Virus record (IMG/VR): IMGVR_UViG_2513237360_000007
Location: 10,637 to 74,636 of that record
Length of the DNA: 64,000 nucleotides
From: a virus
Lineage: Duplodnaviria > Caudoviricetes
Reading direction: 5' to 3' (one strand)
A program made the translations under genes and the position numbers. This document shows positions 10,602-17,158 of the stretch, in pieces; the first letter of the stretch is position 1, and every line of letters starts with the position of its first letter. Under the pieces are notes generated by a model. It searched no databases and was not told the origin of the DNA. It was given only the letters and a program-made list of their open reading frames with translations.

Positions 10602-10870
10602 ATTATATATAGTGTTTATAATAACATAGTATATATTATTATATATAAACTCTTTATATATATAGTTATATATAATAACTCTTTATATATATTATTATAT
10701 ATAATATATAAGGAATAAGGCGAAGCATAGCGCCGATCCGGCCAAAACCATTATAATATCCAGCATTTTCTGCATTTCATTTTCTTCGAGAGGATCTTCC
10801 ATCCCGCGTCCCTCTTTAGATCTTATACGCGATTCCCAATAAATGTAAATACCCACGGTACAAGGAGGTA

Positions 10871-10972: not shown

Positions 10973-13713
10973 TATCTCAACGGTATGTTTTTAAAATCCA
11001 TTCATCCCGGTTACGCCGGGCGAAATGGGATCTGCAGCTCTCGCTTGATCGTGCCAGAAAAAACAAAGAATTGATTGCTCTAAGCGAAAGCCAGATGATG
11101 CGGTTCATTGATGAGATCAACGGGATCACTAATCCCGAACTACACATATCATCAATACGCAGGGAGATAAAAAGGCTTAGGCGGGACAAGGATATTATAA
11201 GGTCCCGGCCAAAGGTTCAGCGGCTCTATGAAGAACTGGATCACTATCAGTTCAAAAAAGATTATGTGTGTGTCGTGATAGATAACGAAAAAGATTATTA
11301 TCACATATACAAGAGGGGATTCAAAATAAATGGCACAACATTCCGCAGGCTGCTGGGGACTACCGGCGGTATCAAGACAAACACTATCGTTTTTGTAAAC
11401 GAGCTGCTGCTGCCAGAATTAATGACAAGGATCAATAACGGGCGCGATCCTCGGAAGGAGTTTTCTCCAGCCAAACTTGAAGCATACATTGCATTAACAT
11501 GCAGCTCCTCCACTCCGGTTAGTATGCCGCGTGGCATTGTAGTTGTGCACGATTGTATTACACACTTCAAAGATGATGTGATCGAACTGGATGATACCGG
11601 AGTTGATCAACCAAAGATGCGGTTCCTCAAAAACCACGAGATTGAACTGAACAATAGCGATGGCTACGGGCTCGGGATGCCGTCCCTTATGGAACAATGG
11701 GGGATAGACATTGGAGAAGACTTTATCCTTCCTGCTTGTGTTATACGAAACTCATTCTGCAAAGGAGCTGTCGTATGTGTGGATTTTCAGCAATTCGCTT
11801 CAGACCATGGCCTGACAACCATACAAGATATCTGGGGGAACACGCATAGCATATTTGAAGTAGCACTTATCTTAACAGAATCAATGCTTAAGCTCTGGGA
11901 TTCCTACTCCTCCATTGACGATTATCTGGAAAACTGTAAAAAGAATCATTATACTTTTGCCATTACGAAGTCATCTGAGTCCGAACTTGAAAATATGAGA
12001 ACTATGAACTATCAGTTTTTACAAAGCTATGATTTTACAGACGAAGAAATTGACGAGTTGATTGCCCCTACAGTAAATGAGATACAGGACATCCTCTCCG
12101 GAGATTACAGGAAAACCATACTCTATGTAAAGGGCATCGGCCTGAATGATGATAATGTACAACACCTGGACACCTCTTTCGCAACTGCTCTGATGATTGA
12201 TAAGGAAATGCAGAAGGACCCGTTTGTACAAGATCAGATACGCGGGATGATCCGCAAGAGAATAGACAATGCAAAAGTTGGAGTCTTAAATGTTCCAGCA
12301 AACTATTCTATCATCTGCGGGGATCCGTACTCCCTTTGCCAATCCATGTTTGGCCTGGAAGTGACCGGGCTGCTCCAGAAGGGGCAGATCTATTCAAAAT
12401 ACTGGATTGATCATGGTATAAACAGAATAGCCAGCTTCCGGGCGCCTATGACATCACACAATAATATCAGACTCTTAGATGTTGTCCATAACAGCGAAAT
12501 GGATGAATTCTACCGTTATATTACCACTCCCACCATTTTTAATAGCTGGGACACCTGCGCCCAAGCCATGAATGGGTTCGACTTTGATGGTGATTGTGTG
12601 ATCAACACATCCCTGCCATTAATAGTAAATAACACGCACCAGCTGCCGGCCATATGTTGCGTGCAGCGAAAGGCTCCAAAATGTGTCCCCACTTCTGATG
12701 ATCTGATGGCATCCAATATCAAAAGCTTTGGAAATGCGGTTGGCCCCATTACCAATAAAATCACCTCAATGTATGATGTTAAAGCACGGTTTTCTCCCGG
12801 CAGCCGAGAATACAACATCATGGACTATAGGATAAAATGCGGTCAGCTTTATCAGCAGAACGCTATTGACAAAAGCAAGGGAATTGAAGCGCGTCCAATG
12901 CCCGCAAAGTGGTATAATTGGATTTCCAATAAGGTAACTCGTACTCAACCATCAAGAGAAAAGAAATATAATGTACTCAACCGTTATCTCCTGGCCGACA
13001 AAAAACCATATTTCATGAAATACATATACCCCTCATCAAAAGCGGAATATGAAAAATATCTTAAATCAAATAGTGATAAGTGCATACTAAGGTTCTCGCT
13101 TACGCTGGATGAGTTGATCAGCAAGCCCACCCATACGGCAGAGGAAGAACAATTTTTAAAGGCTTATTACATTGGCCTTCCTCTGGGTATGGCCCCCTGC
13201 ACATTAAACCGTATATGCTGGAAAATAGAAAGTATCTTTGACAAGTATTATTTACCGCTGAAGGATAATTTTGATTACTCGATCCTGAAATCAGATGTAG
13301 AATACACCCCTTATATGTTTGGGAAAATCAAAAGGATCTATGATGAGTATGTATCAGAACTGCGGGAATACAGTAAAGTATGTGCCAAAGAAAGGATTAA
13401 AGATTATGACAGCAAGACACTAAAATTCACTTTACAGGAAAACTTCAGAAGGCACTGCGTGGAAGCATGCCCAAATGCCGACATGCTATGCAATATCATC
13501 CTGGATATATGTTATACCAAAAATGGTTCTAAAAGATTCGCCTGGGACATGTGCGGTGAAACCATTATCCAGAATCTATTGAAACGAAACAACTATAAAA
13601 TAACATACCCTACGTATGATCAGAACGGAGACATTGAATTTGGAGGTAACACATATAGGATGACAACCACAGATATAAAAGTTGCTATAGATATTGAGGA
13701 TACCATTCATTGA
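10957..13713 (+). CDS. yonO: YonO-like single-subunit DNA-dependent RNA polymerase (two-barrel, RdRP-like)
   Basis: FRAP and catalytic GFDFDGD motifs; position upstream of head genes as in SPbeta; frame extends 38 codons upstream of the track start to an ATA codon 8 nt after AGGAGG (10943-48). Confidence 0.9.
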   Translation: MPKHLISQRYVFKIHSSRLRRAKWDLQLSLDRARKNKELIALSESQMMRFIDEINGITNPELHISSIRREIKRLRRDKDIIRSRPKVQRLYEELDHYQFKKDYVCVVIDNEKDYYHIYKRGFKINGTTFRRLLGTTGGIKTNTIVFVNELLLPELMTRINNGRDPRKEFSPAKLEAYIALTCSSSTPVSMPRGIVVVHDCITHFKDDVIELDDTGVDQPKMRFLKNHEIELNNSDGYGLGMPSLMEQWGIDIGEDFILPACVIRNSFCKGAVVCVDFQQFASDHGLTTIQDIWGNTHSIFEVALILTESMLKLWDSYSSIDDYLENCKKNHYTFAITKSSESELENMRTMNYQFLQSYDFTDEEIDELIAPTVNEIQDILSGDYRKTILYVKGIGLNDDNVQHLDTSFATALMIDKEMQKDPFVQDQIRGMIRKRIDNAKVGVLNVPANYSIICGDPYSLCQSMFGLEVTGLLQKGQIYSKYWIDHGINRIASFRAPMTSHNNIRLLDVVHNSEMDEFYRYITTPTIFNSWDTCAQAMNGFDFDGDCVINTSLPLIVNNTHQLPAICCVQRKAPKCVPTSDDLMASNIKSFGNAVGPITNKITSMYDVKARFSPGSREYNIMDYRIKCGQLYQQNAIDKSKGIEARPMPAKWYNWISNKVTRTQPSREKKYNVLNRYLLADKKPYFMKYIYPSSKAEYEKYLKSNSDKCILRFSLTLDELISKPTHTAEEEQFLKAYYIGLPLGMAPCTLNRICWKIESIFDKYYLPLKDNFDYSILKSDVEYTPYMFGKIKRIYDEYVSELREYSKVCAKERIKDYDSKTLKFTLQENFRRHCVEACPNADMLCNIILDICYTKNGSKRFAWDMCGETIIQNLLKRNNYKITYPTYDQNGDIEFGGNTYRMTTTDIKVAIDIEDTIH

Positions 13714-14480
13714 GTATAATCCTTAACGAAGTAAAGTATGCCGAACAAATTTTAAGTGGTGAAGAACCCGCAAATAAACCATATGCTACTCTCACGCTTC
13801 TTGGTAAGTACTATCGACAAAAGGTAGGTCTAAAACCAATGGAGACAATTACCGCTTTAAATGATTTCATGGTATCGCACTATGATGACTATAACCCAGA
13901 TTCTTGGGAAGAAGTTATTGAGAAAATAGCCAGGTCAAAGAAATACCTGATTCGTGAACTGGATCACATTGAGATCATGCAAACTGAATTGGACTGTATA
14001 GCTTTAATCGATGACTTGAATCTACAGAAAATCATGTTTACTATGCTATGTTACGCCAAATTTTACAATGCCATAAATCCCCGAAATAATAACTGGATTA
14101 ACACGGATATAGCTGAAATCTTTAAAAACGCAAGAGTTAATACGCGGTGCCGTAAAGATAAACTCCTGATTCTAAATAAGCTTTTAAATATGGCAAAATG
14201 TGATGGCGAACCATATATATCATTATCAAAGAAAAATACCAACACCAATGTGAAACTGAACTTTTTAGATATAAGCGGTAAGCCGGTGCTGCAGATATCT
14301 GACTTCAGAGAACTGGGGTATGCGTATCTGCAATACCTTGGTAAGGAGCAGTTCACCCACTGTGAGAAGTGCAGTCTATTAATCAAAAAAGGGAAAAGAC
14401 GACCCAAGTACTGTTCTAATTGCGCCAAAAATATAAACAGAGAAAAGACCCGGCAGAGGATGCAGAATCTAAGGGCTTGA
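13710..14480 (+). CDS. RNAP-adjacent protein with C-terminal zinc ribbon
   Basis: TTG start overlapping the RNAP stop; CEKC...CSNC motif. Confidence 0.75.
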   Translation: MSIILNEVKYAEQILSGEEPANKPYATLTLLGKYYRQKVGLKPMETITALNDFMVSHYDDYNPDSWEEVIEKIARSKKYLIRELDHIEIMQTELDCIALIDDLNLQKIMFTMLCYAKFYNAINPRNNNWINTDIAEIFKNARVNTRCRKDKLLILNKLLNMAKCDGEPYISLSKKNTNTNVKLNFLDISGKPVLQISDFRELGYAYLQYLGKEQFTHCEKCSLLIKKGKRRPKYCSNCAKNINREKTRQRMQNLRA

Positions 14481-14594
14481 AAATGTTTGATTTTATTTGG
14501 CCCCAAAATCCACGTTTTTATGATGGTTTTCGGGCACCTTGCAATTTTCGTTATTATGAAGAGATAAGAGAAAACACATTGAAGGAGAAATATT

Positions 14595-15224
14595 ATGGAG
14601 AAAATGCTGGTAACACAGGCGCTTAATGAATTGAAACTTTTAGATGGTCGTATAAACCGTGCAATTTCCAATGGAGAATATGTGGCTGCTGCAAGACTAA
14701 ACGAATCTAAAGTATCCAGTACCGTGACAAAAGAGGAGTTCATCTCAAATGCCAAGTCCTCGCTCCAATCAGTAAATGACCTGATTGAAAGGCGTAAAAA
14801 GATCAAGGCTGCCGTTGTAATTTCAAATGCCAACACTTTTGTTGACATTTCAGGAGTTTCAATGACTGTGGCAGACGCAATTGAACGTAAAGATAGTATT
14901 GAGTATGACGAAGAAATTCTGGGAACCCTAAAAAAACAACTAAGCAATGCAAGGGCTACTGTTGGTCAGAAAAATTTAAATATGGAGCTTCAGATTGACA
15001 AAATTGTAGAGTCCTCGTTTGGGAAAGACTCCAGGCAGAAAATCAATTCTGATGATTATGAGGCCATTGCTAAGCCGTATAGGACGAACAATGAGTATGG
15101 TTTGGTTGATCCACTAGGCATTGAGAAACTTATTGCTCAAATGGAGGAAGCCATCCAGGGATTTATCTCTAACGTGGATGCTGCTCTGCAGATAAGCAAC
15201 TGTACGACCTATATTGAATTTTAA
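14595..15224 (+). CDS. Helical coiled-coil protein (distantly DIP1984-like)
   Basis: GAAGGAG SD; heptad-rich; N-terminal QALNELKLLDGRI and C-terminal VDAALQISNCTTYIEF; family link tentative. Confidence 0.75.
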   Translation: MEKMLVTQALNELKLLDGRINRAISNGEYVAAARLNESKVSSTVTKEEFISNAKSSLQSVNDLIERRKKIKAAVVISNANTFVDISGVSMTVADAIERKDSIEYDEEILGTLKKQLSNARATVGQKNLNMELQIDKIVESSFGKDSRQKINSDDYEAIAKPYRTNNEYGLVDPLGIEKLIAQMEEAIQGFISNVDAALQISNCTTYIEF

Positions 15225-15245
15225 TACATGCAAGCCTTAATTTAA

Positions 15246-15607
15246 AAGAAAATAGTTTGGCATGGTTGTGCGAAAATTCCAAATTCACACACCTTCTCAA
15301 ATAGGAAAATTTGAATATTAAATCCAATACGAATACTGTTAATAGAAAACAGAATAATGGATATTAAAACATATTATCTAATTGAGCAAAGTATGCATTC
15401 TTTAATGCAAAAGATGCTGGCTTACTTTTTATAAAAATGCTTAATATTCAATCATCAATTCTAAATTCTTACATTTCAATCATCTTATGATTAATCATCA
15501 ATTATAAATCCTAAATCATCGATAAAATCCTATAAGATTGGTTAGCGCCGCTTGTGTGATTAGGCCGGAATGGTCCAATAGGCTGCCCAGCCATGCCAAA
15601 CTTTCTT
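15246..15607 (+). ncRNA. Putative ~360-nt structured RNA of unknown family
   Basis: Closing stem AGTTTGGCATGGTTG(15254-68)/CAGCCATGCCAAACT(15588-602); inner 11-bp stem 15311-21/15441-51; no ORF; abuts tRNA-Gly. Confidence 0.65.
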
Positions 15608-15617
15608 GAAATAAAAT

Positions 15618-15691
15618 GCGAATATTGAGTAATGGCTATCTCCCTTGCCTTCCAAGCAAGTATATTGCTGGTTCGAATCCGGTTATTCGCT
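15618..15691 (+). tRNA. tRNA-Gly(TCC)
   Basis: GCGAATA/TATTCGC acceptor, CTTGC-CTTCCAA-GCAAG anticodon arm, TTCGAAT T-loop. Confidence 0.85.
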
Positions 15692-15701
15692 TTTACTTAT
15701 A

Positions 15702-15773
15702 GCTGGCGGAAGGTCGGATATCTTACTAAGCCTCATAAGCTTGGTCAAACAGGTTCAACTCCTGTGCGTAGCA
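15702..15773 (+). tRNA. Degenerate tRNA-Met(CAT)-like element
   Basis: TAAGC-CTCATAA-GCTTG anticodon arm, ACAGG-TTCAACT-CCTGT T-arm; acceptor stem pairs poorly. Confidence 0.55.
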
Positions 15774-15802
15774 AGCAAGTCAAATTTCACTTGATCTATA
15801 GA

Positions 15803-15830
15803 GTCATCCCCAGCATGACGTACTTTTTTT
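15803..15830 (+). terminator. Rho-independent terminator-like hairpin
   Basis: GTCAT/ATGAC stem followed by a T7 run. Confidence 0.45.
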
Positions 15831-15877
15831 AATGATATGGGAAAATAATAATCAAACTATGAAAGGTAGGTAATAAT

Positions 15878-16045
15878 ATGGCAGTTGTTACAAACAAAAA
15901 TGCAGACCCAAGAACTGCGGAGCAGAGAGCTAACGATGCTGCTCAGAATGTCCGTCCCAAAGGTGCCCAGGATACAGCCTATGTAACCACCGGTCCCGCC
16001 ACTGGGGTAGAGGACGAACGCGCCAAAGATACAGAAACTCAGTAA
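15878..16045 (+). CDS. 55-aa hydrophilic peptide (MAVVTNKNADPRT...)
   Basis: GAAAGGTAGG SD, ATG, open frame to TAA. Confidence 0.6.
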   Translation: MAVVTNKNADPRTAEQRANDAAQNVRPKGAQDTAYVTTGPATGVEDERAKDTETQ

Positions 16046-16072
16046 TTTGGTCATGGCACCAAAGTGCCCTTT

Positions 16073-16145
16073 GCCGGAATAACTCATTTAGGTGAGCAGC
16101 CACAGAGTATGTGAAAGGCTGTTGGTTCGATCCCAACTTCCGGCT
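16073..16145 (+). tRNA. tRNA-like element with non-canonical anticodon arm
   Basis: Perfect GCCGGAA/TTCCGGC acceptor, D-loop GG, GTTGG-TTCGATC-CCAAC T-arm; anticodon stem disrupted, no U33. Confidence 0.55.
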
Positions 16146-16189
16146 TATTAAAATATACGCAGAAAGGATGTAATACTATAGGTTCTTGC

Positions 16190-17158
16190 ATGATTACATA
16201 TCAGGAAGTTAAGGATCTGGTCAAGTCAAAACTAATTGATAAGACAGATTCCCGCAGTTTTGAAGAATTAAGCGAGTATCTTTTTGGAGAGGGAAACTGC
16301 TTCTGTGAAAGTGAAGTCCGCAAAAGAATGTATGGCATGCAGAGACTTGTTGAAATAATAGAGGCCAGCACCAATGATATTAATATCTCCCGGCGTATTC
16401 TGTCCATTTCGGATGCACATATCCCATTTAACCTATCACCTGGCATATTCAAACAATACTCCGGGATGGTTGATATTCTAATCTTCAATGGAGATATTTT
16501 AGATTGTCAATCTATATCCAAGTTTCCTCGGTTATATAGAATCAGCCTCACAGAAGAAATGATCCGGGCCCGGAAGTATATGACAGATGTCATAAAAATG
16601 ATACAACCAAAAACCGTCTACATTAATGTTGGGAATCACGAAAAACGGCTTGGTAAATACCTATCAGAACGGTTGAATGACGACTTAATGCGCATTATGC
16701 CAGATAATCCTCTTGATTTGATAATCAACGATGGCTTCAAGGATAAGGACCGCGAGAATAAAACTGAAACATACTACTCTCCGTTAAAAGAGGTGTTTAA
16801 AGATTCCGGTATAGATATTATATACACCGGCGGATGGTATTGTATGGTTGGTAATACTATTTTCGCACATCCACTCTCTTACTCTTCCGGAATGTTAAAA
16901 ACCACAGAGAAGGCTACAGACTATTTTCTTCGGAAAAACAGAATCTTTACGTCTGTCGTATTGGGCCATACACATAAACTTGGAAGTTTCATTCAAGGTG
17001 GAATACAAATGTACGAGCAAGGTTGTACCTGCGATTTGTCCCGGCTTGATTATGCGGATGGGATGCTTACTCTGCCCAATCAAAATGGATTTATCTATAT
17101 TTGCCAAGATATAGATGGAAATATCATCAATGAAAAAACAAAAATAGTAAAAATATAA
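16190..17158 (+). CDS. Calcineurin-like metallophosphoesterase
   Basis: SDAH, GDILD, GNHE, GHTH motifs. Confidence 0.9.
   Translation: MITYQEVKDLVKSKLIDKTDSRSFEELSEYLFGEGNCFCESEVRKRMYGMQRLVEIIEASTNDINISRRILSISDAHIPFNLSPGIFKQYSGMVDILIFNGDILDCQSISKFPRLYRISLTEEMIRARKYMTDVIKMIQPKTVYINVGNHEKRLGKYLSERLNDDLMRIMPDNPLDLIINDGFKDKDRENKTETYYSPLKEVFKDSGIDIIYTGGWYCMVGNTIFAHPLSYSSGMLKTTEKATDYFLRKNRIFTSVVLGHTHKLGSFIQGGIQMYEQGCTCDLSRLDYADGMLTLPNQNGFIYICQDIDGNIINEKTKIVKI

Follow-up and report, generated by a model that had tools for sequence, protein, structure and literature searches.

Background

ROOL and GOLLD, two large non-coding RNAs of phages and prophages with an intricate fold, are often found beside tRNA genes. 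Repeat RNAs of another kind, such as the trp leader with its protein TRAP, and CsrB and RsmZ with CsrA, bind many identical protein subunits through motifs of the type (G/U)AG or GGA. The VIPR system combines a RAMP/RRM protein, Vipr, with an adjacent RNA of ~100 nt (vrRNA), which comprises 9-16 strict 5-nt YNNGG units with hypervariable NN and often occurs in arrays; on these repeats, the protomers of Vipr are reported to align in a row (bioRxiv 10.64898/2026.04.26.720920). Bacterial Y RNAs and YrlA, which are found also in phages, are modular and contain an end-to-end stem and, in some members, a tRNA-like module (PMC4201824).

The pair described here consists of an RNA with a tract of 7-nt units (hereafter the heptad RNA) and a protein encoded immediately upstream (the partner protein). 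Like VIPR, it brings together a small phage-encoded protein and an adjacent RNA in which tandem short repeats are followed by a pseudoknotted conserved part. The units of the heptad RNA, however, are 7-nt U-Y-A-A units, whereas those of vrRNA are 5-nt YNNGG; the RNA is single, ~250-410 nt long and closed by its own ends, whereas vrRNAs measure ~100 nt and are often arrayed; and its tract is near-invariant among T5-like phages, in contrast to the hypervariable NN of vrRNA. The partner protein is modelled as mostly helical, unlike the RAMP/RRM protein Vipr, from which its fold most likely differs. The resemblance to VIPR is one of logic, not of membership.

Compared with ROOL and GOLLD, the heptad RNA is smaller, and it comes with a 7-nt tract and with a dedicated protein gene located upstream. 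The preliminary description of the locus had drawn this comparison, and the analogy of context stands, but the covariance models of GOLLD and ROOL do not match the RNA. With the TRAP and Csr targets it shares about a dozen short conserved motifs at a short, slightly flexible spacing in single-stranded RNA, an arrangement that suggests binding of many identical protein subunits; it differs from them in its U-Y-A-A motif, the fold of its protein, its knotted closing core, and its context of phages and tRNA arrays. As in Y RNAs, a stem is formed by the two ends of the molecule, and a tRNA-like module is present in some members, but the heptad RNA gives no Rfam Y RNA match and has the tRNA-like module in some lineages only. 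No Ro60/Rsr gene was seen beside it.

Results

The locus and its setting

The stretch of DNA that was analysed (the window) comprises 64,000 nt, and the feature under study occupies positions 14595-15607. The window comes from a provirus fragment in IMG/VR (74.6 kb, ~45% complete). Since identical copies of the window's partner protein are found on 70 contigs, the longest of 2.19 Mb, the DNA of the window is probably a prophage. The elements that frame the RNA are as follows.

14497-14524, + strand: candidate sigma-70-like promoter, 5' of the protein gene (9/12 positions match; weak consensus)
14595-15224, + strand: partner protein gene, 209 aa, PHROG 1491, T5.085 family (ORF; PHROG profile)
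15618-15691, + strand: tRNA-Gly (UCC) (ARAGORN and Rfam, 50.7 bits)

Between the end of the gene and the tRNA-Gly lie 393 nt (15225-15617) with no + strand ORF of at least 30 aa, and the segment is thus ORF-free, as had been proposed. The tRNA starts 15 nt past the closing stem of the RNA, or 10 nt past the AAGAAA/TTTCTT extension of that stem; the 10-nt distance given in the preliminary description is correct when counted from the extension. The same tRNA-Gly is next in line after the RNA also in close relatives. The number of promoter-like sites in the region is not above that in shuffled sequences. Between the candidate promoter and the tRNA no further promoter-like site was found on the + strand, and no terminator-like site was found in the gene-RNA-tRNA interval of the window.

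Two ORFs upstream of the pair (11071-13713 and 13710-14480; 880 aa and 256 aa) had been taken for an RNAP gene pair. Sequence searches of Pfam, NCBIfam and PDB gave no match for either ORF, and the PHROGs to which they correspond are all of unknown function, so that the RNAP label is not retained here. The same 880-aa and 256-aa genes precede the pair in the relative at 92% identity.

Further upstream, a TA-rich tandem repeat (10630-10710; 29-nt unit, 2.7 copies) is located in a gene-free region, at the same place (~10 kb) where the coding strand and the GC skew switch; it may represent a divergent promoter or origin region. Downstream of the tRNA-Gly there are two tRNA-like stretches for which ARAGORN makes no call. 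The first (15700-15780) has the look of a CAU anticodon arm, a good T-arm and an imperfect acceptor stem. In the second (16073-16144; weak tRNA-Sec match, 16.6 bits), the acceptor halves match and a T-arm is present, and the anticodon region is oversized. These may be degenerate or intron-bearing tRNAs.

A conserved structured RNA encoded on the + strand

Positions 15254-15602 (+ strand) correspond to a real, conserved, structured non-coding RNA, with a length of ~350 nt in the window and roughly 250-410 nt in the family. The fold energy of 15240-15612 lies below that of shuffled sequences (z = -3.15). Three seed relatives were obtained via the protein at 49-56% identity, each with an ORF-free gap followed by tRNAs. 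Their gaps contain common sequence blocks and, on inspection by eye, a closing stem that differs in sequence with its pairing kept. A wider homologue set came from pattern scans, two over viral contigs and one over bacterial genomes; a script retained the matches in which the RNA's two ends pair, which left 54 distinct members.

In these 54 sequences, the closing helix P1 (14 bp) and the helix H (5 bp) are together 95.8% paired, compared to 59.1% after column shuffling and to 31-48% when the partner strand is slid out of its true register. Their covariation score is 0.947 versus 0.216, none of 500 shuffles being as high, and changes on both sides are seen in 16 of the 19 pairs. Taken singly, P1 is 95.4% paired over its 14 pairs (both-sided change in 13) and H is 97% paired (both-sided change in three of five pairs). 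The collection of homologues and check for covariation that had been recommended thus yields a positive result for both helices. Approximately 97 of 1026 pair cells are G.U, which would become A.C mismatches if read on the opposite strand; as the wobble pairs fit the + strand alone, the functional molecule is the + strand RNA.

The RNA matches no described family. At gathering thresholds, Rfam 15 reports only the tRNA-Gly in the 64-kb window; at E-values up to 10, chance-level matches to snoRNAs or CRISPR repeats appear around the RNA (15100-16300). None of the Rfam models for GOLLD, ROOL, RAGATH-27, tmRNA, Y RNA, RNase P and 6S matched the RNA at threshold, ARAGORN found no tmRNA, and a blastn search of the region against phage records gave no match. 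The literature that was searched contained no published description of the gene-RNA pair. Neither the RNA nor its protein belongs to a described family, and there is no match in Rfam, Pfam, NCBIfam or PADLOC, in agreement with the initial view of an uncharacterised RNA outside the named Rfam families.

For a T5-like copy, contigs assembled from RNA libraries (Logan) span both the gene and the RNA, with DNA carry-over being possible. One such contig ends at the 3' end of the RNA and continues into adapter, although contigs of this kind demonstrate neither transcription nor transcript ends or levels and are given no weight here.

Pseudoknotted core

The following elements, all on the + strand, are distinguished within the RNA.

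15254-15271 / 15585-15602, + strand: P1, closing helix (inverted repeat, covariation)
15272-15276, + strand: GAAAA junction, nearly invariant (no change in the columns of G and the first A, next two A at least 90% conserved)
15276-15280 / 15567-15571, + strand: P2 (covarying examples; cognate 6.59 versus non-cognate 4.82)
15285-15291 / 15553-15559, + strand: P3, 7 bp, formed with the loop of Pa (sequence, covarying examples; 6.71 versus 5.46)
15292-15294 / 15303-15305 (stem) and loop 15297-15302 with 15309-15314, + strand: putative 5' H-type pseudoknot (relatives)
15315-15437, + strand: central variable region (unalignable between clades; lineage-specific hairpins)
15438-15518, + strand: repeat tract (7-nt periodicity)
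15519-15530, + strand: near-invariant 12-nt motif (most letters invariant or at least 90% conserved)
15529-15533 / 15578-15582, + strand: H (covariation; cognate 5.18 versus non-cognate 3.26)
15545-15566, + strand: hairpin Pa with loop 15553-15559 (seen in the sequence)
15581-15585, + strand: near-invariant GGCUG motif (conserved columns)

The ends of the RNA fold into a pseudoknotted core, composed of P1, P2, P3 with Pa, and H, with invariant junction motifs. The outermost part had been described as a 15-bp stem (15254-15268/15588-15602); it is exact save one U.G pair, and compensatory changes conserve it across the 54 homologues, which is much stronger evidence than the fold energy. Beyond one U-C mismatch the stem continues, in the family frame, to C15271-G15585, and the inverted repeat in the window is wider (15249-15271/15585-15607). 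P3 pairs with a hairpin loop and therefore constitutes a pseudoknot, and H, which crosses P2 and P3, forms a second one. The 5' strand of H consists of the final CC of the 12-nt motif and the next 3 nt, while its 3' strand overlaps GGCUG. For P2, P3 and H, the cognate duplexes are longer than non-cognate pairings, and individual examples show that the sequences of P2 and P3 differ between members with complementarity kept. Hairpin Pa is only 58% paired in the columns of the MAFFT alignment because of register shifts; per-sequence examples support it.

The putative 5' pseudoknot (15292-15314) is kept in close relatives and has covarying counterparts in T5-like phages, PVP-SE1 and other members. 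A generic finder of H-type pseudoknots did not separate the 5' domains from shuffles (12.1 versus 11.1), so the knot is inferred from individual covarying cases. Compensatory changes are observed also within the central hairpins of T5-like phages. A perfect 11-bp inner stem (15311-15321/15441-15451) had been noticed in the window; it is indeed perfect there, but it is not conserved, being broken in L343 and L345, two relatives with proteins 73-77% identical, and its 5' arm overlaps a conserved pseudoknot strand.

Heptad repeat tract

The tract at 15438-15518 contains approximately 11-12 units of 7 nt, with a break near 15476-15492. In the window, a unit reads U, Y or A, A, A, followed by three variable bases. 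The core common to the whole family is U-Y-A-A; in the window it continues with U and two variable bases, while in most other members A-G and one variable base come after U-Y-A-A. Autocorrelation over the family reaches 0.44, 0.42 and 0.37 at lags of 7, 14 and 21 (background ~0.25), and the spacing between motifs is exactly 7 nt in 199 of 341 cases. The units of T5-like phages are irregularly spaced (7-9 nt), which makes a rigid register of one protomer per unit uncertain. The tract is almost free of G in the window, no GGA occurs in 15438-15518, and the RNA is apparently single-stranded here.

Among seven T5-like phages (RNAs 90-100% identical), only ~5 positions of the tract vary, and about two of the core. 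The RNA is present, at 90-100% identity, in 438 T5-like records, across which tract and core are near-invariant; it is almost never an annotated feature there. Where the protein is 73-92% identical to that of the window, the RNA keeps its A-A-U cores and the spacer bases drift. The near-invariant tract of T5-like phages, together with the kept cores, is more in keeping with a binding platform under constraint than with a guide that evolves fast. A published cluster with a 7-nt period (#156,623; bioRxiv 10.64898/2026.10.21.760802) was considered and found to be distinct from the heptad RNA, as its second array is reverse-complemented and it has no protein partner.

Partner protein

The profile of PHROG 1491 matches the protein over its full length (residues 1-209, E = 7.5e-63). 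The family occurs in 739 phage records and, clustered at 90% identity, comprises at least 3642 clusters, every one of them named hypothetical and none with a Pfam assignment; the protein itself matched no Pfam, NCBIfam or PADLOC family. Its AlphaFold2 model, derived from an alignment of 38 sequences, has a pLDDT of 93.8 and contains five helices and a small sheet of four short strands, and is mostly ɑ-helical, as the 209-aa product of ORF 14595-15224 had been expected to be.

The only solved structure aligned over the whole partner protein is that of an uncharacterised protein from Corynebacterium diphtheriae (PDB ID: 3kdq, 152 aa). The two share 18% identity over 151 residues with an rmsd of 9.2 and a Foldseek probability of 1.0; the Z score is 11.2, and a Z below ~13 between helical proteins may mean a common helix arrangement only. 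Viral and Atlas structural look-alikes are all uncharacterised. Comparison of the AlphaFold2 model with known structures revealed no recognisable RNA-binding fold. No RAMP or Cas protein is among the fold matches listed, which cannot exclude such a fold.

PHROG 1491 bears the label 'tail fiber'. In T5-like phages, PVP-SE1 and JBP901, the gene has tRNA genes and early-type genes as neighbours, and no tail-fibre fold was found in the structure matches; for both reasons the label is regarded as unsupported. In Aeromonas phage LAh_8, the partner gene comes directly after a gene (L352, 503-799) that bears the annotation ProQ-like RNA chaperone.

Distribution and gene-RNA linkage

For nearly every member of the RNA family, the protein gene lies on the same strand and ends 7-116 nt upstream. 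Phages that carry the pair include T5 and the T5-like phages, the rV5-like and Bastille-like groups, Lactococcus phage 949, and Vibrio and Aeromonas phages. Conversely, every protein homologue that was fetched (JBP901, a T5-like phage, PVP-SE1, REC, River4, 949, RAY, LAh_8, Hena1 and seven metagenomic relatives) is followed by a gene-free gap of 380-790 nt. A covariance model that covers the 3' domain of the RNA only (R1) locates the RNA in this gap in Aeromonas phage LAh_8, Lactococcus phage 949, Vibrio phage River4 and Erwinia phage Hena1. It gives a single match in the 64-kb window (53.7 bits, E = 5.9e-09) and weak ones in Pseudomonas phage REC (E = 0.1) and Erwinia phage RAY (E = 0.54), both of which have the protein. 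The window RNA exhibits all features of the family, i.e., P1, the GAAAA junction, the 12-nt motif, H pairing onto GGCUG, the heptad tract and the PHROG 1491 gene. That the RNA is genetically coupled to its neighbouring protein gene, in phages that are very distant from one another, and to tRNA arrays is well supported.

In one relative with a protein 77% identical (L346, 2781-3630), a Tad2-like gene (anti-Thoeris, PF11195) and a weakly ThsB-TIR-like gene come after the pair, and an integrase gene lies 5' of it. In L003 (4062-4210), a RAGATH-36 RNA (RF03104; 70.6 bits, gathering score 70) comes immediately behind the heptad RNA, ahead of the tRNA cluster.

Association with tRNA genes

Approximately 24 of 40 loci have a tRNA on the same strand within ~450 nt of the pair, and in seven of the loci the tRNA begins 0-16 nt past P1. 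In the filamentous cyanobacteria Moorena, Phormidium, Coleofasciculus and Floridaenema, the pair resides inside long tRNA arrays, and an embedded tRNA-like module replaces the 5' and central part of the RNA, as it does in the viral member L172. ARAGORN calls complete tRNAs inside the RNA in three members (Gln in L226, 6271-6341; Asp in L255, 2434-2509; Ile in L172, 6344-6419), each between the 5' strands and the repeat tract, so tRNA modules are apparently tolerated, or recruited, by the central region. The RNA is not followed by a tRNA in JBP901 and T5-like phages; the tRNA cluster of JBP901 is located upstream of the gene. Because the 3' end of the RNA abuts a tRNA in many lineages, release by RNase P, as suggested in the preliminary description, is plausible.

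Suppressor-type tRNAs are present in the tRNA clusters beside the pair at three loci (L129, 6079-6165; L133, 2132-2223; L353, 2035-2142); two have the anticodon CUA (ARAGORN 'Pyl') and one is annotated as tRNA-sup(tca).

Discussion

With moderate confidence, we favour an RNA-protein particle that is matured from a tRNA operon transcript, holds one protomer per repeat unit, and has a tRNA-related role. The gene, the RNA and the downstream tRNA would be transcribed together, and an RNase P cut at the tRNA would generate the 3' end of the RNA. The repeat tract could then serve as a row of binding sites, each for one protomer of the partner protein, with the knotted core as a cap or nucleation site. 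Binding of the protein to the RNA is suggested by the gene neighbourhood. The product would be a defined ribonucleoprotein tied to tRNA gene arrays, e.g., one concerned with tRNA supply or with tRNA-directed conflict between phage and host. A more far-reaching version can be offered as a tentative suggestion: the pair might represent an undescribed ribonucleoprotein class of large phages and mobile tRNA arrays, in which a pseudoknotted RNA with a coded row of heptads is joined by a ring or filament of helical protein. Such a particle would have the tRNA pool or tRNA-targeting immunity as its target, and changes in the units could re-target it.

The RNA alone could instead be a decoy or sponge that soaks up some factor of the host, for which defence nucleases that cleave tRNA, enzymes that modify tRNA and RNA chaperones are examples; the protein would then be co-inherited or active elsewhere. 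The tight association with tRNA clusters and the embedded tRNA-like modules are consistent with such a role, as is the nature of the units, which are A-rich, have the 7-nt size of a tRNA loop, and in several cases resemble T-loop or anticodon-loop sequences. Strong conservation of the tract in T5-like phages is expected for a fixed host target, Tad2-like anti-defence genes are nearby in one relative, and the ProQ-like chaperone gene adjoins the pair in Aeromonas phage LAh_8. A sponge nevertheless leaves the near-absolute adjacency of gene and RNA over a huge evolutionary distance unexplained, and the unit consensus differs between hosts with common conserved tRNA loops; we consider this explanation unlikely. 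A cis-acting element that controls the protein mRNA or the maturation of the tRNA operon, whether as a structured 3' UTR or as a module for processing and stability, would account for the position of the RNA 7-116 nt past the stop codon on the same strand, for the lack of a promoter or terminator in between, and for the RNA-library contigs that bridge the gene and the RNA. It is decidedly improbable, however, given a 350-nt multi-pseudoknot core, invariant junctions and a conserved tract that far exceed the needs of known 3' stabilisers, and given that JBP901 and T5-like phages have no tRNA following the RNA, the cluster of JBP901 being upstream of the gene.

A tandem tract in which constant positions alternate with variable ones, with a conserved pseudoknotted tail behind it and a dedicated protein encoded beside it by the phage, recalls a VIPR-like guide RNA with a non-contiguous code, in which the variable bases of the units would jointly specify a nucleic-acid target and the protein would polymerise on the tract. 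The drift of spacers among window relatives, with the fixed core bases kept, agrees with such a code, but the tract is near-invariant in the 438 T5-like records, each locus has a single RNA and no arrays, the units are 7 nt long, irregular (7-9 nt in T5-like phages) and devoid of GGY, and the protein is modelled as mostly helical, with no RAMP among the fold matches listed. A guide function therefore has a very slim chance of being correct. The chance is close to negligible for an element acting at the DNA level, such as an iteron replication origin or a small mobile element that has inverted repeats at its termini. Its AT-richness, short direct repeats and long-range inverted repeat give the locus such an appearance, but compensatory changes preserve pairing rather than sequence, G.U pairs fit one strand only, the element keeps one position and one orientation with respect to a single gene, and the window contains no further copies. 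It was the lack of other copies of the arm sequence in the window that led to rejection of a MITE or iteron reading.

T5, Bastille-like and rV5-like phages have a research history of decades and serve in biocontrol, yet hundreds of GenBank records leave the pair unannotated or mislabel its protein as 'tail fiber'. The system is testable directly in T5 and E. coli K-12. The interface between phage infection and the tRNA pool is a major battleground of bacterial immunity, and the combination of a constrained multi-pseudoknot RNA, one protein family and tRNA arrays points to an undescribed activity at the interface of phage and tRNA pool. The pair offers a compact new RNA fold and possibly a new mode of RNA-protein assembly.
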